Origin: a virus
Virus record (IMG/VR): IMGVR_UViG_3300046459_000427
Coordinates: 40,854-104,853 of that record
Reading direction: 5' to 3' (one strand)
DNA: 64,000 nt
Shown: piece by piece, positions 11,751 through 41,428 of the stretch
Layout of the letters: each line of letters starts with the position of its first letter
How positions within the stretch are numbered: the first letter of the stretch is position 1
Position numbers and translations under genes: made by a program
The notes under the pieces: generated by a model
What the model was told of the DNA's origin: nothing
Databases searched by the model: none
Seen by the model: only the letters and a program-made list of their open reading frames with translations

Positions 11751-12088
11751 GGCAGTATCTCCTCGGCGTCCATTTCCGGATGCGCCAGGGCATGAAGCGC
11801 CAGGAAAGTCTCTTCGGACATCGTGATCCAGTTCCTTCCACCGGACATCTGAGTCCCGAAGAGCATTTCCCTGCCATCGATCAGGGCTTGCTTCTCTGCG
11901 GTGATCAGTTCTTTTTCTTTGAGCGAGTACGAGCCCTTACTGGTGACCTTGTACTCGATCGAGTAATCCGGAGTGCGGACGTCGTTCTTTCGCACCCAAC
12001 CGTTGCCGCTACCCGCGTTCACCGTCCCGCCGAGGAGTTCCGCTCCCCGCCGCTCCTGCCTCTGGCTCTTCTTGAGCATGTCCGCCAT
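11744..12088 (-). CDS. PD-(D/E)XK nuclease, probable Holliday junction resolvase
   Basis: QERR..GSGNGW..KNDV...IEYKVT; start ATG 12088 with GGAGG RBS. Confidence 0.7.
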   Translation of the reverse strand: MADMLKKSQRQERRGAELLGGTVNAGSGNGWVRKNDVRTPDYSIEYKVTSKGSYSLKEKELITAEKQALIDGREMLFGTQMSGGRNWITMSEETFLALHALAHPEMDAEEILPW

Positions 12089-12221
12089 ATGAGGCCTCCA
12101 GGAGTGTGGCGAGGAGATTGAACTTCTCGTGGGACCGGCCCTGGCGCCGGGAGTACCGGACGCCAAGGGCCAGGATGTAAACGGCTGCTATGACCAGCAG
12201 CGCGGAGAGGATGGCCACCAT
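12009..12221 (-). CDS. Small membrane protein
   Basis: N-terminal TM helix; start overlaps recA stop. Confidence 0.5.
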   Translation of the reverse strand: MVAILSALLVIAAVYILALGVRYSRRQGRSHEKFNLLATLLEASYGGHAQEEPEAGAAGSGTPRRDGERG

Positions 12222-13405
12222 CAGGCGGCCTGGGTATGAAGCCCGTCGGCCTCTTCCGGCTTCGGCCGTCGGCTGACCTTCTTGGTGCCCGAGTTCTCGG
12301 CGGCCGTCAGGTCGTCCTCGGAGATGGAACGCTCATCCGCGTGCTGCGAGGCGGCGAGGACCTTTTCGTAGAGGAATTCCTGGAGGTCCAGGTCCTCTCG
12401 AATTGCGGCGAGGGTGTTCTCCTTGCTGTGCCAGCGAAGGACGGGCTTTCCCCTGTCGTCGTATTCGCCGTTGTCGACCTCGTAGTAAGCGCCCGCGCGC
12501 TTGATGACGTCGAAGAGGATCCCCATGATCATGATTTCCTTTGTGGTGTCGAAATCACCACGGGTGAAATTCAGATAGGGAGCGGAGCGGAAGTAGGCGT
12601 CGATCGTGGCGATCTGCTGCGGGGCCGCCGACTTGTTCTTGATGGTCTTCACCTTGATGACCTGGCCGACGTTCACCTTGCCCTTTCCGGGCCGAGGCTC
12701 CTGAATCCACTCGTCGCGTCGGACTTCCACCCTGGTGTAGAACGCATAATTCTTCGCGTTTCCGCCGGGGGTTGTGGTCGGCGTGCCGTGCGGGGAGAAC
12801 TTGCCGATGGCGTCGCGGTACTGGTTGATGACGATGCCGAGCAGCGGGCGGTCCTCGGGGTCGGTCATGCTGCGCTTCGTCGCGGCGCCGGACTTCCGGA
12901 AGAACTTGCCGGTGAGACGGGCGCCCAGCGCCATGGTCGCCTCGTCCATGTCCTTCTCGGACTCCTCGTCCGGTATGAGCGCCGGGTAGGAGTCGAGGAC
13001 GATCATGTCGACCGAGCGGGACGTCGCGAAGTCGAGCATGGTCTGGTAGGCGAATTCCATGGCCTGGGTGGGGACGACGATCACGCGGTCGTTGTCGACG
13101 CCCAGCGCTTCGGCCTGGTCGGTGTCGTAGTGCTCTGCGGCGATCCACAGGCACGTGAAGTCGGGGTCCTTCTTCTGGTTGGCGGCCAGCGTCTTGTAGA
13201 CGATGAAGGTCTTGCCGTGGGACTCACGGCCGATGACCTCGACCCACTGGTTGCCCGGCCAGCCACCGCCGAGGGCGATGTCCAGGGAGAGGGAGCCGGA
13301 GGTGAAGCGCTTGGCCACGCGCATGTCCGAGGCGAAACACACGGCACCCGGATGGGTCTTGTTGATCTTGGCGAGAAGTGCGAGGGCGTCCTTGTTCACG
13401 CTCAA
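12221..13405 (-). CDS. recA: RecA/UvsX-like recombinase
   Basis: SGSLSLDIALGGGWP, EVIGRESHGKT Walker A, IVLDS, INQYRDAIG, TPGGNAKNY, IKNK; start likely TTG 13405 or GTG 13399. Confidence 0.93.
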   Translation of the reverse strand: MSVNKDALALLAKINKTHPGAVCFASDMRVAKRFTSGSLSLDIALGGGWPGNQWVEVIGRESHGKTFIVYKTLAANQKKDPDFTCLWIAAEHYDTDQAEALGVDNDRVIVVPTQAMEFAYQTMLDFATSRSVDMIVLDSYPALIPDEESEKDMDEATMALGARLTGKFFRKSGAATKRSMTDPEDRPLLGIVINQYRDAIGKFSPHGTPTTTPGGNAKNYAFYTRVEVRRDEWIQEPRPGKGKVNVGQVIKVKTIKNKSAAPQQIATIDAYFRSAPYLNFTRGDFDTTKEIMIMGILFDVIKRAGAYYEVDNGEYDDRGKPVLRWHSKENTLAAIREDLDLQEFLYEKVLAASQHADERSISEDDLTAAENSGTKKVSRRPKPEEADGLHTQAA

Positions 13406-13434
13406 CAGGGGCCCCCGTAGGTATGAAGTCGCAT
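13402..13434 (-). CDS. Putative leader mini-ORF MRLHTYGGPC coupled to recA
   Basis: AGGAG RBS upstream of ATG 13434; TGA stop overlaps recA TTG (TTGA); contains the CTTCATACC motif. Confidence 0.5.
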   Translation of the reverse strand: MRLHTYGGPC

Positions 13435-13480
13435 GTGTGGTGTTACTCCTGATCCGATAGCGCGGAAGCGATAACGAAGA

Positions 13481-13521
13481 ACCGGTAGTCCCCATACCAT
13501 AACGGTGAAGGGACTACCGGT
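13481..13521 (-). terminator. Terminator-like hairpin after nrdJ
   Basis: ACCGGTAGTCCC...GGGACTACCGGT inverted repeat. Confidence 0.65.
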
Positions 13522-13564
13522 CCACTCATGTATCAACTAGTCCAGCGAAGAACTTTGAGAACTT

Positions 13565-15526
13565 TCAGGCAGTCACGAGGTCGACGTCCTCGCAGCCACC
13601 GGCCGCCGAGCAAGCCAGCGCCTGGGAGCCCACGGTCTGGTCGTAGGTCTCGTAAAAGGCCAGGTCCGACCACTCGACGCGGTGCTCCTGGGTGATCAGA
13701 GCCTCGTACTCGGCCTCCGTGATCTCCTCGTACGGCGCCTGCACGTAGGTGTGATCGCTGTACGGAAGGAAGGAGACTCCCGAGATCTCGCCCAGGTGCT
13801 CCCAGACCCACTCGCCGACCTCGTCCCACTCGTGCTCGCGCACGCTGATGGTCACCGACGGCTTGTGCTCGCACCAGAAGCGCTGATAGGCGAGCCAGAT
13901 CTTCAGGTGCTCGATCGCGGAGACGTCTTCACGCACCAGCGCGGTGTTGCTGGCACGCTGGGCGAAGGTGAACACCCACGCCGAGGAGTTGTAGGCGTCC
14001 TCCTCGTGCGGAATCCCCCCGTCGATCATCACGAACGAGATGGGGTCCTTCTTGTCCACCCGCACGCGCCGCTTGTAGAAGCGGGCGTGCTTGGTATGAA
14101 GCCCGCTCTCGCAGTCGACCAACTGGGAGACGGTCCCGGAGGGCTTCACGCAGGTGATCGCGTCCGAGGACGGGATGCCGATGCGCCGGGCCTCCTTCTC
14201 GTTGGCGATGCGGGCCGTCAGGCGAAGGTCGGTCAGCGTGAGGGACGTGAGGCCGTCACCCTTGCTGCCGTCGGTGTTCTGGTTGCCGAAGACCCCGGTG
14301 AGGGAGACGCCCAGCAGCCGCTCCTCCTCCGCGTTCTTGCGCCACTCCTCACGCAGGTACGGGTAGTCCGTCAGCGTGCTCTGCCAGGTGCCCAGGGTGG
14401 CCGCCAGGCTCACCTTGCGCTCCAGGTCCTCGACGGTGTCCTCCGGCCGCACGACGACCTCGGACAGGTTGCAGAACGAGAACGGCCGAAGAATGATCTC
14501 CGAGCACGGGTTGGTCCCGTAGTCGGTGTCGGCCGAGCGGTGCCCGTACTTCGCAGCCTGACGCTGGGCCGCACCACGGTGGAAGATGCCACGCTCACCC
14601 GAGCCGCTGGCTACCAGGGAGCCCCACTCGGCGCGGAAGTCCTCGTGACGCATGCCGTCGTAGTAGACGGCCGAGTTGTTGGCCAGCGCACGGTAGCCGT
14701 GATCCTTCCACCACTCCCCAGCCTTCGCCTGCGCCATCTCCTGGTCGTCCAGATCGGACAGGGAGATCATCGCGGACCGCCGGACACCACCGACCACGAC
14801 GACGCTGGCTATCTTGCAGGCGATGTCGTGGACCTCGATCGGCCGGAACTTCCGACCGGCGGCCTGGTGGAACTTCTCCACGGTGAACGCGAACAGTTCG
14901 TCCAGCGGACCCGGGCCGGAGGCACGCCCACCGAAGGTACGAAGGCGGGCACCGGCAGGCCGGATCCCGGACAGGTCCCACTGGTGTACCTCGCCCTGCC
15001 ACAGGCCTTCCAGCAGGGCCCGGAACGCATAGCCCCAGCCCTCCTTGGAGTCCTCGACGACGATCACGTCGGCAGACGCCCGAAGGGTGTCCGGGACGGC
15101 AGGCAACTGGTCGGTGTACTGGCGCTCGACCGAGTAGCCGACGCCCGTGCCGTTCATGAGGATGTAGAGGAGTTCGTCCAGGGCGCGCGGGTCCTGGAGC
15201 GGCAGGTACGAACAGTTGAAGCCCGCGATGTTCGAGCGGTCCAGGGCGGCACCGGCCGTCATCACCGCGCGCATCGACGGCATGACCTCGTGGTTGAGGA
15301 CCGCCTGGCGGACGGCCGCGACGACCCCCTGCTCGGGGATGTAGTCGTGCTTGTCCTTCAACTGGCCGAGCATGAAGTCGACGTAGCGGTCGACGGTCTC
15401 GGTCCAGGTCTCGCGGCGGTTGCGCTCCTCGTCCCAGCGGGCGTACCGGGACTTGGCGATGAAGGAGCGGTAGGGGTCGGCGATGTCGCCGGTCGGAGTG
15501 AGCAGGGAGGTCACCAGGAGGTCCAT
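13565..15526 (-). CDS. nrdJ: Class II (adenosylcobalamin-dependent) ribonucleotide reductase
   Basis: MPSMR, FNCSY, GTGVG, VVVGGVRRSA, TNPCSEI, CNLSE, TCVKPSGTVSQL, C-terminal CSAAGGC. Confidence 0.93.
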   Translation of the reverse strand: MDLLVTSLLTPTGDIADPYRSFIAKSRYARWDEERNRRETWTETVDRYVDFMLGQLKDKHDYIPEQGVVAAVRQAVLNHEVMPSMRAVMTAGAALDRSNIAGFNCSYLPLQDPRALDELLYILMNGTGVGYSVERQYTDQLPAVPDTLRASADVIVVEDSKEGWGYAFRALLEGLWQGEVHQWDLSGIRPAGARLRTFGGRASGPGPLDELFAFTVEKFHQAAGRKFRPIEVHDIACKIASVVVVGGVRRSAMISLSDLDDQEMAQAKAGEWWKDHGYRALANNSAVYYDGMRHEDFRAEWGSLVASGSGERGIFHRGAAQRQAAKYGHRSADTDYGTNPCSEIILRPFSFCNLSEVVVRPEDTVEDLERKVSLAATLGTWQSTLTDYPYLREEWRKNAEEERLLGVSLTGVFGNQNTDGSKGDGLTSLTLTDLRLTARIANEKEARRIGIPSSDAITCVKPSGTVSQLVDCESGLHTKHARFYKRRVRVDKKDPISFVMIDGGIPHEEDAYNSSAWVFTFAQRASNTALVREDVSAIEHLKIWLAYQRFWCEHKPSVTISVREHEWDEVGEWVWEHLGEISGVSFLPYSDHTYVQAPYEEITEAEYEALITQEHRVEWSDLAFYETYDQTVGSQALACSAAGGCEDVDLVTA

Positions 15527-18515: not shown

Positions 18516-19325
18516 TCAGTCGTTCAGGATCTCGCGGGCGATCTGCTTGAGTTCGTTGCGCGTGTTCACCTGGAGGACGTCCTCGTCGTACGCCTTGTCG
18601 TCGAACTCCTCCAGGTCCTCCTCGGTCAGGGGCTCGACGTCCCAGTCATCGAGGAGGTCCCGCTCCTTCACGGGGGTGATGTAGTAGGTCGTCTTGTTGT
18701 TCTTGGACTGCTTGGAGACGGAGAAGTACAGGTCGTCCCGGTTGATCGGCGCCGTCTTCTTGTCCTTGGAGTAGTTCTTGAGGATGTCCGCGACCATCGG
18801 GCCGAACTGCCAGATCTTGACCTGCGGGTCCTCGGGGTCGGTGAAGTCGACGACGTTGAAGCAGACCTGCTGGGAGGGCTTGTCGCCTGCGTCGTCGCAC
18901 AGGGGGCAGCGGGACTCCAGGCACGTCCAGGACCGCTTGCCCTTGCGCTCGATCCAGTGCTGGAGGAAGACCAGGAACGGCTCCTCGTCGAGGATCTTCA
19001 CGACCACGGCCTCGCCGGTCACCTTGAAGTTCTCGGGGAAGCCGGACGTGGCGCTCTTGGTCTTCTCGTACGAGCCCCATCCCTTGCCGCCGACCTTCGG
19101 GGTGGGCTCGTCGTCCTCGTCGTCCTCCTGGGAGCGACGCGAGCGACGGGAGGAGGTGTCGGCCTCCTCGGTATGAAGCGACTGGCGGCGCGAGCCACGG
19201 CGGGAGCCCCGGGCCGGACGCTCGTCCTCGTCGTCCTCCGGGAGGTTGTTGTCCTCCGGCTCGTCGGCGGGGGTGTAGGCCTCGGTGGACGCGGCGGTGC
19301 GGCGGCGGGTGAGGGTGCGGGGCAT
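18516..19325 (-). CDS. Probable single-stranded DNA-binding protein (T4 gp32-like)
   Basis: Disordered N-terminus then QHW...CLESRCPLC...FNVVD...KIWQFG...TTYYI; next to polA; start ATG 19325 with AGGAG. Confidence 0.65.
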   Translation of the reverse strand: MPRTLTRRRTAASTEAYTPADEPEDNNLPEDDEDERPARGSRRGSRRQSLHTEEADTSSRRSRRSQEDDEDDEPTPKVGGKGWGSYEKTKSATSGFPENFKVTGEAVVVKILDEEPFLVFLQHWIERKGKRSWTCLESRCPLCDDAGDKPSQQVCFNVVDFTDPEDPQVKIWQFGPMVADILKNYSKDKKTAPINRDDLYFSVSKQSKNNKTTYYITPVKERDLLDDWDVEPLTEEDLEEFDDKAYDEDVLQVNTRNELKQIAREILND

Positions 19326-19564
19326 CAGGTGTTCTCCTGCTGGTAGAGGTGTACGTACGACTTGTTCTCGGCGGTGTTCAGCCGGGCCTCTTCGATGTCG
19401 GCCGCCAGTGAGGTGACCAGGTACTCGGAGGCGATCGTGTCCAGGTCCCCGAGCGTCTTGGCTGCGGGGAACTCCTCGGAGTCGACGGTGATCTCGGCAC
19501 CGAATTCGACCCACTCGAAGTTGCCCATGGACACGTGGTGCTTGGCACTGCGGGTGATCTTCAC
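19325..19564 (-). CDS. Hypothetical protein
   Basis: 79 aa, overlapping stop/start coupling. Confidence 0.75.
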   Translation of the reverse strand: MKITRSAKHHVSMGNFEWVEFGAEITVDSEEFPAAKTLGDLDTIASEYLVTSLAADIEEARLNTAENKSYVHLYQQENT

Positions 19565-20595: not shown

Positions 20596-20949
20596 TTACG
20601 CCTTCTTGAAGGCATCCCGGAACGCCTGGCGGGCAGCGTAGCGGCGGGCCGCTTCGTCCTTCTGGTCACGGCGGAGGACCGTCTCGGCCACGTCCTGGTA
20701 GACGGTGACGACGCGCTTCTCTTCCGGGTCGACGACGGCCACGAGGTCCCCCCGGATGTGCCGAACCTGTCCAGGAACGCGGCCCGAGGGGTAGGTATGA
20801 AGCGGCTCGTTTGCCGCGAGGAGAACGTCCGCGCTGCTCCAGCCCTTGGCGGCGGCCTGCTGCTGCGCGTGGTGGGTCAGCCGGTAGGTCGGTGCGTCAG
20901 TGACGGCTGCGGACCAGGTGATGCCAAGGGTCTCTGCGATGGTGGCCAT
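20596..20949 (-). CDS. DUF4258-like (RelE/BrnT-fold-like) small protein
   Basis: YRLTHHAQQQAAAKGWSSADV...VAVVDPEEKRVVTVY pattern. Confidence 0.6.
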   Translation of the reverse strand: MATIAETLGITWSAAVTDAPTYRLTHHAQQQAAAKGWSSADVLLAANEPLHTYPSGRVPGQVRHIRGDLVAVVDPEEKRVVTVYQDVAETVLRRDQKDEAARRYAARQAFRDAFKKA

Positions 20950-27282: not shown

Positions 27283-28290
27283 TCAGGACCAGTAGTCCTC
27301 GTTGAACCGGTTGTCTTCCATCGCGCTGGCGGCCTTGCCCAGCCTCTGGGCCAGCAGCCCACGGGCGGCCAGGAAGTCCTTCCAGGCGACCACGTTGTCC
27401 GAGCGCTGCCAGGACGACGACCAGTAGGTGATGATCATCTGCCGGATCTCGTCCCGCTCCATGCCCTGCGCCATCCACCGGCCGAAGTTGCCGGTGAGCG
27501 CCGAGAGGTTGGTCGTTCCGGGTACCGGATGGCCGACCTCCTGGGCTCTCTTGTCGAAGAACAGCGCCAGTTCCTCTGAAGGCCTCTGGGAGCGCTTCTT
27601 GGGAGGCCGCCGGACCGGAGGGGCCGGGGAGTCCTCCGAGGCCGGGAGATCGCCGTAGAGAGTGAACGACGGGGTGTTCTCTTCCAGAGCCTGCGAGACC
27701 ACGTAGGCCGGGTCGAGTTCCATCTCCGCCTGAGCCTGCTCCTCGGCCACCTGCTTCCGGGACTTCTTCCGGCCGCCACGCTTAGGTGCCGCGACCGCTC
27801 CCCAGCCCTTGGCTCCCGGCCTGGTCACAGGTTCCTCTTCCAGGGCGTCGCCCTGGAGATACGAAGTATCTCTATTACTTCTAGTAGGGATATTGGGGTT
27901 GGATGAAAGATCTGCACCCTGCAAATTTTGCAGGGGGGTCTTGTCCTGATTTGGACCATGCAAATTCTGCATGTCAACTACTCCCGCAACCGGCGCTTCG
28001 AGCCACTCCTCCACGGGGCGAATCCTGCGGACCACGGACGCGTACAGCGCGGCCTCGGGCGGCGCTTCTGCCTTCGGCACGGCCTCGATGATGCTCCGCT
28101 TCTCCAGGTTCCGCAGACAGTTGTAGACGCTGCGTTCGGACATGCGGGTGCGCTTGGCCAGGGTCTTGACGGACTCCCACATCATGCGGTGGTCGTCTCC
28201 TGCCGCGTCTGCGATACGCAGCAGCACCAGCAGGTCTCCATTGCCGACGGGGGCGTACTGCCACACCTCGGACATGATCAGGATGCTCAC
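27283..28290 (-). CDS. Replication initiator with N-terminal winged HTH
   Basis: LLVLLRIADAA...SVKTLAKRTRMSERSVYNCLRNLEK (HTH_36-like); lies upstream of the DnaC-like and DnaB genes as in lambdoid O-P modules. Confidence 0.8.
   Translation of the reverse strand: MSILIMSEVWQYAPVGNGDLLVLLRIADAAGDDHRMMWESVKTLAKRTRMSERSVYNCLRNLEKRSIIEAVPKAEAPPEAALYASVVRRIRPVEEWLEAPVAGVVDMQNLHGPNQDKTPLQNLQGADLSSNPNIPTRSNRDTSYLQGDALEEEPVTRPGAKGWGAVAAPKRGGRKKSRKQVAEEQAQAEMELDPAYVVSQALEENTPSFTLYGDLPASEDSPAPPVRRPPKKRSQRPSEELALFFDKRAQEVGHPVPGTTNLSALTGNFGRWMAQGMERDEIRQMIITYWSSSWQRSDNVVAWKDFLAARGLLAQRLGKAASAMEDNRFNEDYWS
27850..27975. other. Putative replication origin inside the initiator gene
   Basis: AT-rich patch plus two near-palindromes CTGCAAATTTTGCAG (27919) and ATGCAAATTCTGCAT (27958). 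Confidence 0.55.
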
Positions 28291-28334
28291 TCGGCGGCTC
28301 CGAGCAAGCGATAAGTATGAAGCGATATCCCCAT
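28287..28334 (-). CDS. Putative leader mini-ORF MGISLHTYRLLGAAE coupled to the initiator
   Basis: ATG 28334; TGA overlaps initiator GTG (GTGA); contains the CTTCATACT motif. Confidence 0.45.
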   Translation of the reverse strand: MGISLHTYRLLGAAE

Positions 28335-40290: not shown

Positions 40291-41428
40291 TGATATCCTC
40301 CAGAAGGCTCGACTCCCAGAACTGCTTGTTTCTCAGAACAGCCGGGACGCTGTCGAACTTGAATCGCTTGTTCGCATCGCTTCGGAATGTTACCGCGTAG
40401 GGCTGGTCCCTTTCCGCATCCACCGTGGTGGTGAACATCAATCCGGAGTTGCTCTTGTCCCGGTTGATGAGGTGCTTCGTACCAGTCACCATCCAACGGC
40501 CCGCACGGTCCGAAGACAGCGCACTTCCGGTGACGGTCACCAGCGTTCCCGGCGCAACCTTCGCTGTGCCGTACAGCGTGGCCTCCATGGTGATCCAGCC
40601 TCGTGAAGCAAGCGTGCGGGCTTCCATCAGCGCCTGCGCGTCCGCGTAGTTGTCGACCGCTCTGGCGGTGGTTATGGAGTTGAGGAACGCAGCCGTTCCC
40701 GTATTCGCCGCAGACGACGCCTTGACGACCCGCCCCGTCTTCGCGTCGAGGCCGGAAATGCTGCTCGTTCCCGCTGTCCCGTTCTCGCGGGGAATCATGG
40801 TGCCGGTAAGGATCGACAAATCCCGGAGGGTGTCCAGCACTCCCGGCTTCTGGTTCTTGTAGAACACGGGAATGTTCTGCGTGCGCTGGCCCAGCAGAAG
40901 AATGCGCGGGTCGAGGAAGTACAGCGTCGTCCCTTCGACCCAGAACCGGAAACCTACTTCGTTCGCCAGATCCTGGAGGAGTTTGAAATCACTCTGCCCG
41001 CTCTGCGCCCAGTAGGTGAGCCTGCGGGTGGACGGAGAGATGACGGTGCGCAGTCCGTTCTGGCGACCGACCTGGCGGGCGATGGAGGTGGGGCTTACGT
41101 TCTTCCACGACCGTGTGCGCTGGATGTTCAGCGGCAGGCTGGTGCCGATGCACACGTACCGCGTAGTGACCGACGTGGTGCCATGACTGGCCACGACGCT
41201 GGAGTGGTGCACGTAGCCGTACCAGCGGACGATGTCGTTGGGGCTGCGGCCGTAGTCGAGCACGACGGGAGCCAGCTCGGGGTAGGCGGTGCTGGCCGCG
41301 CCGGTCGTCACGTCCACGATCGCCATGGAGTGCGTGCCGTAACTCTCGCGGACTTCGACTCGGTTGATGAAGTTGTTGATCCGGGTGCCGGAGATGGTCA
41401 GGGCTGTGAAGGGGGTCGGCTCAGGCAT
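40280..41428 (-). CDS. Baseplate hub protein (gpD/gp27-like)
   Basis: AQSGQSDFKLLQDLANEVGFRFWVEGTTLYF; position between LysM-like gene and spike. Confidence 0.8.
   Translation of the reverse strand: MPEPTPFTALTISGTRINNFINRVEVRESYGTHSMAIVDVTTGAASTAYPELAPVVLDYGRSPNDIVRWYGYVHHSSVVASHGTTSVTTRYVCIGTSLPLNIQRTRSWKNVSPTSIARQVGRQNGLRTVISPSTRRLTYWAQSGQSDFKLLQDLANEVGFRFWVEGTTLYFLDPRILLLGQRTQNIPVFYKNQKPGVLDTLRDLSILTGTMIPRENGTAGTSSISGLDAKTGRVVKASSAANTGTAAFLNSITTARAVDNYADAQALMEARTLASRGWITMEATLYGTAKVAPGTLVTVTGSALSSDRAGRWMVTGTKHLINRDKSNSGLMFTTTVDAERDQPYAVTFRSDANKRFKFDSVPAVLRNKQFWESSLLEDINVG

Follow-up and report, generated by a model that had tools for sequence, protein, structure and literature searches.

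Translational coupling through overlapping stop and start codons is well described at E. coli trpE-trpD and trpB-trpA (UGAUG) and at many phage junctions, and control by the position of a ribosome on a leader peptide, near a hairpin that masks a ribosome-binding site, is known from ermC, cat and secM-secA. Here we describe a ten-codon leader open reading frame (mini-ORF) directly before a recA-like gene in a 64,000-nucleotide stretch of DNA of a Streptomyces-type phage (the window; positions 40,854 to 104,853 of IMG/VR record IMGVR_UViG_3300046459_000427). The virus record has a length of 104,853 bp and carries direct terminal repeats. As in the trp operon, the stop codon of the recA leader overlaps the downstream start (UUGA); as at other coupled junctions, a tract of recA resembling a Shine-Dalgarno (SD) sequence lies inside the upstream ORF, and the start codon sits in a predicted structure that a terminating ribosome would open. 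The locus differs from trp coupling in that its upstream ORF is a ten-codon leader rather than a real gene, that nothing of its coding content is conserved except a nucleotide-specific three-codon motif common to about 30 other genes, and that sister phages have the leader and the downstream gene joined in one frame.

The leader shares with ermC, cat and secM a short ORF and a specific site just before a hairpin that contains the downstream SD and start codon. Unlike those systems, it has no evident inducer or arrest peptide, and its conserved feature is 9 nucleotides (nt) of RNA, not a peptide. Moreover, the SD of recA lies in the 5' arm of the hairpin, beside the motif, such that a ribosome held at the motif would block rather than expose recA, and the motif-hairpin unit also occurs within ordinary genes. 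Judging from sequence comparisons, we put the probability at about two-thirds that the mini-ORF is a translated leader ORF that carries the motif and is coupled to recA by termination-reinitiation together with opening of the hairpin. The elements of the locus are as follows:

13450-13446, minus strand: Shine-Dalgarno sequence AGGAG, 11 nt 5' of the mini-ORF ATG
13434-13402, minus strand: leader mini-ORF, ATG plus nine codons (MRLHTYGGPC) plus TGA, from the ORF list and relatives
13428-13420, minus strand: the genome-wide motif CTTCATACC, encoding Leu-His-Thr in the mini-ORF, from a scan for copies
13417-13381, minus strand: predicted hairpin around the recA TTG, CGGGGGC pairing with GCCCUCG, from a consensus fold
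13416-13412, minus strand: G5 tract, SD-like element of recA and part of the hairpin 5' arm, from GGGGG-N6-[T/G]TG in relatives
12221-13405, minus strand: recA-like recombinase, 394 residues, TTG start at 13405 (Pfam RecA, E 9.4e-42)

Genes in the window lie mostly on the minus strand, as do all features of the recA leader. The AGGAG is separated from the mini-ORF ATG (13434-13432) by 11 nt (TAACACCACAC), and the ATG is followed by the codons CGA CTT CAT ACC TAC GGG GGC CCC TGT. The TGA stop (13404-13402) overlaps the recA TTG (13405-13403), so that the junction reads TTGA. Since the ATG and the TTG are 29 nt apart, recA lies in the -1 frame relative to the mini-ORF, and a single base added to the G5C4 run at 13416-13408 would join the two frames. 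The original prediction, made from the sequence of the window alone, had described both this anatomy and the frame-joining base, and was exact in each. It also assigned the clear ribosome-binding site to the mini-ORF and not to recA. The first half of this holds: AGGAG-N11-ATG would provide the mini-ORF with initiation signals of its own, with a predicted anti-SD duplex of -6.9 kcal/mol. The second half does not, because recA has the conserved G5-N6 tract, for which pairing with the universal anti-SD core CCUCC is predicted at -8.6 kcal/mol.

The recA product matches Pfam PF00154 over residues 32-272, contains the Walker A loop GRESHGKT, and shares 48-50% identity with the RecA-like recombinase of Streptomyces phage LuckySocke and with its counterpart in phage BRock. 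Across 120 homologues, the family N-terminus M-x-[V/I/L]-N-x-[D/E]-A-x-A-L starts at the codon equivalent to the TTG, and many of these proteins have a true ATG there. In close relatives the codon at 13405 is TTG or GTG without exception. Most close relatives have GTC or ATC in place of the next start candidate, the GTG at 13399, and the sole upstream in-frame ATG (13495) falls within a separate hairpin at 13479-13523 and is ATT in relatives. Because the family N-terminus begins at 13405, TTG or GTG is kept there and neither other candidate is conserved, we assign the recA start to TTG 13405.

We compared the locus with 52 viral contigs from a search for related loci and with further metagenome and genome contigs. 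A blastn search of the leader against the phage collection gave no match, the relatives being found through the RecA protein, and a pattern scan with an extended 18-mer returned no contigs beyond those already found. The whole arrangement, consisting of an SD, ATG or GTG, one free codon, CTTCATACC, G5, N6 and a start codon overlapped by TGA, is shared by 11 distinct leaders of the upstream-ORF (uORF) type, from relatives whose RecA proteins are 81-98% identical. All 11 keep the SD, the start, a length of exactly ten codons and the NTGA overlap; in every relative the SD reads AGGAG or GGAAG and precedes the start by 8-13 nt, and the start is GTG in one leader (L024). The encoded peptides include MRLHTYGGPR, MTLHTCGGRL, MTLHTCGGCP, MRLHTCGGTL, MRLHTYGGNL and MRLHTYGGSL, with codons 9 and 10 varying freely. 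In two relatives (L022 and L067) a 6-nt deletion restores an identical stop-start overlap. These comparisons indicate that the mini-ORF is a real and conserved element. They also support the translational coupling that the original prediction had listed as one option: SD, start, ten-codon length and NTGA overlap are conserved, while the last two codons are free.

The same alignments bear on the thought that a single RecA ORF was split by an indel in the G5C4 homopolymer, or by an error of assembly there, to which the fusing effect of a one-base insertion in that run would point. The frame relation between leader and recA is identical in more than ten independent metagenome assemblies, some of them variants without a homopolymer. 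Downstream of GGGGG the leaders read CCCCTGT, CCCCCGT, CCGCCTG, CTGCCCG, CACCCTT, CAACCTG or CTCCCTG, and in some relatives the run is GGGGGCAACC, GGGGGCACCC or GGGGGCTGCC, with several lacking a homopolymer at this place. Logan contigs of relatives, taken from three more public runs of which one is a metatranscriptome, span 13408-13416 with no indel; they are not reads from the source sample. Another run (X3) yielded no contig over this stretch, which says nothing either way. One relative (L008) does read G5C5, which had been proposed as the mark of a simple N-terminal extension of RecA, but it arises there through a T>C substitution that leaves length and frame unchanged. We therefore give an indel or assembly error practically no weight, and the sequencing-error option of the original prediction falls with it. 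An N-terminal extension of RecA does exist in sister lineages, where it has come about through a net length difference of 8 nt and not through a change in the homopolymer. For annotation, this means that recA is best called from the TTG, that the small ORF is to be taken as real and that the sequence needs no repair.

A programmed -1 frameshift would join the two frames by another route. At such sites, known from dnaX, the IS3 family and the phage tail chaperone G/GT, an in-frame signal is followed after a short spacer by a hairpin, with the downstream gene in the -1 frame; the recA leader resembles them in all of these respects (with CUU in the P site, the base of the hairpin lies at about +12), and slippage in the G5 run would give RecA the true N-terminus MRLHTYGGPLLSVNK..., comparable to the extended RecA that sister phages make. 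The leader has, however, no slippery heptamer of the X XXY YYZ type: its zero frame reads TAC GGG GGC CCC, with only five G, and re-pairing on C GGG GGC (CGG/GGG) leaves mismatches for both tRNAs. Nor is there a conserved trans-frame product, as the residues between G5 and the recA start are PL, PP, LP, HP, QP or PC, RL, CP, TL, NL, depending on the frame. RecA has its own SD and its own start codon at 13405, both conserved, and N-termini throughout the family begin there. GGGGG-N6-[T/G]TG is invariant across uORF-type relatives, and the G5 is lost in fused relatives of the clade with the alternative motif form CTTAATACC, which fits a role as an SD and not as a slippery site. We consider a frameshift, which the original prediction had also offered, very improbable.

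In two lineages related to this phage, the identical SD-ATG-NNN-motif cassette is fused in frame to RecA (MxL[H/N]T..GGPDKEAL). The first is represented by a contig of a Streptomyces genome (L094), with MPLHTGGGPDKEAL, and the second is a clade of viral contigs with CTTAATACC, whose RecA begins MxLNTxAxGP[DG]KEAL. In the fused viral clade, the leader segment from the motif to the conserved AAGGA is 8 nt shorter and the G5 is gone. The SD of the cassette is RecA's own SD in these fused relatives, with its ATG as the nearest start before the conserved N-terminus. In a RecA tree the uORF forms make up one clade (support 94/94), with the fused forms as its unresolved sisters. It follows that this SD-ATG pair works as a start in fused phages, and in split ones it has been retained instead of decaying.

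The motif is not confined to the recA leader. In the whole genome (G000), CTTCATACC occurs in 28 copies on the gene-sense strand and in one on the opposite strand. All 22 copies in called genes, as called with a simple codon-bias caller made for this analysis, read CTT-CAT-ACC, and the remaining copies lie in the same frame of ORFs or mini-ORFs. From codon usage we would expect about 40% of copies in the CTT-CAT-ACC frame, and about 0.05 copies in total. The lone opposite-strand copy is likewise in frame, in an ORF of that strand with coding-like G+C content at third codon positions (0.79), and opposite-strand copies in two relatives are in frame of ORFs on their own strand. Leu-His-Thr encoded by other codons is found twice, compared with 3.5 expected from composition, and is thus at or below background. 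The use of one frame throughout, together with this lack of enrichment for other Leu-His-Thr codings, indicates that the signal is nucleotide-specific and frame-locked.

A comparison with relatives G001-G005 shows that genomes of a sister clade have 26-37 copies of CTTAATACC in place of CTTCATACC. Within the motif, C versus A (CAU to AAU) is the sole difference at 16 or more orthologous sites. This clade-wide switch at the same sites implies a trans-acting reader with changed specificity. Neither form occurs in more distant relatives: outgroup phages, with RecA proteins 55-64% identical, carry no copies of CTTNATACC save one chance match, and no 9-mer of comparable enrichment was found in the three outgroup genomes that were fetched whole. 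A search of three genomes for an antisense "guide" copy of the motif gave none that was convincing, and the literature, searched with the motif strings and for phage motifs that are in frame and strand-specific, yielded nothing relevant. We rejected two candidates along the way. Phage tRNAs do not explain the clade switch, as tRNA-Asn(GUU) is present in all three genomes and tRNA-His(GUG) only in G000. A DUF4258-like gene at 20596-20949 was dropped as the motif reader, its Pfam match (E 0.026) being below the cut-off and the gene being present also in an outgroup phage that lacks the motif.

Copies of the motif tend to be followed by a hairpin. A perfect stem of at least 5 pairs starts +1 to +5 nt after the motif (mode +3) at 55-67% of copies, compared with 12-14% of random positions (p 1e-8 to 1e-12). 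The 50 nt downstream of the motif fold about 4 kcal/mol better than controls, and the 50 nt upstream show no excess. Hairpins at orthologous motif sites are often kept; in an ungapped comparison of their pairs, 5 changes were compensatory, 16 one-sided and 70 broken. With CUU in the P site, the base of such a hairpin would lie at about +12, at the entrance of the mRNA channel.

The predicted hairpin over the recA start conforms to this +1 to +5 rule. It begins 3 nt 3' of the motif, holds both the G5 tract and the start codon, and has as its 3' arm the GCCCUCG of recA codons 7-9. It is predicted in every relative, with a minimum free energy of -17 to -23 kcal/mol in each, and the fused forms have a predicted stem there as well, built in part from other bases.

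Taken as a mechanism, coupling would proceed as follows. Ribosomes would initiate at AGGAG-N11-ATG and read CUU-CAU-ACC, would then meet the hairpin 3 nt further on, with its G5 tract and UUG, and would terminate at the UGA that overlaps the UUG. Melting of the hairpin and termination on the start codon would provide recA with the ribosome itself or, at the least, with a site that has been opened. On our inference, initiation takes place at the ATG, the hairpin folds in the mRNA, recA depends on translation of the uORF and the motif gates passing ribosomes. The peptide would be irrelevant past Leu-His-Thr, with selection acting on in-frame translation of the motif and on the stop-start overlap. 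The mini-ORF would thus be a "carrier" that places a motif-plus-hairpin element before RecA, and in-frame fusion in the sister lineages would reach the same end. As a working guess, the motif may be a codon-specific gate for ribosomes, in which case RecA fusion and a coupled leader ORF would be equivalent solutions.

Several observations weigh against this coupling model. The SD-ATG spacing of 11 nt is long, within a range of 8-13 nt among relatives. RecA has a good SD-like tract at ideal spacing, from which it could initiate independently, and the uORF may then add little. The consensus fold of the recA-start hairpin has 7 pairs that are all invariant, and hence gives no covariation signal either way, and both arms are otherwise constrained, one by the G5 tract and the other by Ala-Leu-Ala codons. 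The uORF state arose once in the RecA tree, so its retention is the history of one lineage. The frame-lock may be partly inherited; in the CTTAATACC form, one alternative frame contains TAA and the other TTA-ATA. On the RNA side, a 263-nt contig of a close relative in a rhizosphere metatranscriptome run spans the 5' end of recA and the mini-ORF (window 13250-13449) and ends within the AGGAG, which weakly hints that the leader is present on mRNA; its depth is 2, it comes from a relative, and carry-over of DNA could account for it.

Some of these points would be at home in a different account, in which recA initiates alone on G5-N6-TTG and the motif and hairpin form an RNA or DNA operator for a sequence-specific binding protein or nuclease. 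Translation would not be needed, and the SD-ATG would be a relic of a fused ancestor, leaving the mini-ORF without a role. The strong predicted anti-SD pairing of G5 and its constant 6-nt spacing fit independent initiation, a motif with an adjacent hairpin resembles a single-stranded recognition site beside a stem, a trans-acting factor that reads nucleic acid is implied by the C/A switch that separates the clades genome-wide, and for the CTTAATACC form the frame is forced by the codons just given. Apart from this account, the motif can be compared with the stoperators of Cluster A mycobacteriophages, which number about 25-35, are asymmetric sites for a repressor, are oriented with transcription and have clade-specific variants. 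Like them, the motif consists of tens of short asymmetric sites oriented with genes, with a sequence that differs at the same places in a sister clade. Stoperators lie mostly in short intergenic gaps and do not need translation, whereas the motif lies within coding sequence, is frame-locked, is followed by a hairpin and has dedicated mini-ORFs outside genes.

A relic should decay, yet in all 11 leaders the start is still there, no additional stop has arisen and the overlap has stayed in place, and the one ATG>GTG change still leaves a start codon. For CTTCATACC no reading frame is forbidden, yet all examined copies share a single one. An operator or relic also sits poorly with a second leader mini-ORF, which holds its frame through whole-codon indels in 13 variants, and with copies past gene ends that have an SD, start and stop of their own, built from different sequences (MKTIRLHT-stop and MRRLNT-stop). 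We therefore see an operator with independent initiation as unlikely, though it is the alternative that we take most seriously, and favour the coupled, translated leader.

These further motif carriers, together with example copies in the window, are:

12219-12241, minus strand: second motif copy at this gene, in the RecA C-terminal tail (GLHTQAA-stop), from ORF and motif scan
12219-12241, 14093-14101 and 19170-19178 of the window: example motif copies with a variable-sequence hairpin 3'
28334-28287, minus strand: second leader mini-ORF, MGISLHTYRLLGAAE, with the motif variant CTTCATACT, from the ORF and relatives
G000:C1:18745-18790 and 19320-19385, outside the window: two more motif mini-ORFs

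The mini-ORF at 28287-28334 has a hairpin 5' of the leader, and its stop overlaps the GTG start (GTGA) of the gene at 27283-28290. Its 13 distinct variants are 13-15 codons long and change in length by whole codons. All but one of them finish with GTGA, ATGA or TTGA on the next start, even with a different downstream gene; in the exception (L154), leader and downstream ORF form one continuous frame. At one further locus of this leader (L150) the motif is absent.

Of the two mini-ORFs outside the window, MKTIRLHT-stop connects to the preceding gene through ATGA, with a large hairpin downstream of it. Its counterparts in other genomes are MRRLNT-stop or a C-terminal ...ARLHT-stop. The other, MKRLHTYAASVEQGGQR-stop, overlaps the next start via TAGTG, and in other genomes the counterparts of both stand alone in some cases and are fused to a neighbouring gene in others. 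Around a quarter of motif copies have a stop within the next 18 codons, one that in most cases overlaps the start of the following gene. The RecA C-terminal copy is an example: the loop of the hairpin 3' of it contains the TGATG overlap with the next gene (12009-12221).

Across these loci, the motif is kept in one frame in about 30 genes, has its own start and stop where it lies outside genes, is fused or split interchangeably in sister phages, and differs by a single letter at matching sites across a sister clade, a pattern suggesting that a specific factor reads the signal in the course of translation. On a tentative and more detailed proposal, which we hold at somewhat less than even odds, the element would consist of CUU-CAU-ACC and a hairpin 1-5 nt further on, so placed that, with CUU in the P site and CAU in the A site, the base of the hairpin stands at the entrance for the mRNA. 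It would mark about 30 genes, often before coupled junctions, and be read by a trans-acting factor whose specificity was switched in the sister clade; the recA leader would be a dedicated carrier because the signal works only when translated. If true, the element would be a regulon signal that works at the level of translation, a type not described in phages; the recA leader, a 50-nt cassette, offers a compact and testable model of such a signal.

A cluster of tRNA genes lies outside the window at G000:C1:9573-10768, with Pro(TGG), Phe(GAA), Leu(CAA), Asn(GTT) and His(GTG). The tRNA-His(GTG) is unusually long at 86 nt and is absent from relatives G001 and G004.

Upstream of the recA leader, the window contains:

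13565-15526, minus strand: ribonucleotide reductase, class II-like, 653 residues (Pfam Ribonuc_red_lgC, RNR-II_ins_dom, RNR_Alpha)
13523-13479, minus strand: strong hairpin between the ribonucleotide reductase gene and the recA leader, from folding and relatives

The ribonucleotide reductase gene holds an internal, in-frame copy of the motif (SGLHTKH). The hairpin that follows it has a stem of about 14-15 pairs and then a U-rich tail, UUCUUCGUUAU; its region folds at -70.3 kcal/mol (z -3.0), and the stem is kept in relatives via compensatory changes (GTCCC/GGGAC, GTTCC/GGAAC, GTGCG/TGCAC). From this predicted fold, the element looks like a terminator, a 5' stabiliser or a promoter-associated element. 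A promoter and terminator scan, whose loop limit skips the hairpin at 13479-13523, found no promoter near the leader. Directly upstream of this hairpin stands TAGTTGATACAT, which is nearly invariant among relatives.

Close as well as distant relatives (L094, L097-L100 and the proteins P0006, P0007 and P0011) are on contigs of 200-770 kb or on the chromosome of Streptomyces isolates, and IMG/VR classes relative G001 as a provirus; the phage group is probably temperate or carried as a prophage. In distant Streptomyces prophage relatives (L097-L100 and L045), a terminator is followed by TTCATACGG about 10 nt 5' of the recA ATG. This stretch contains a possible -10 box of the TAnnnT type (TACGGT), spaced as for a leaderless mRNA.

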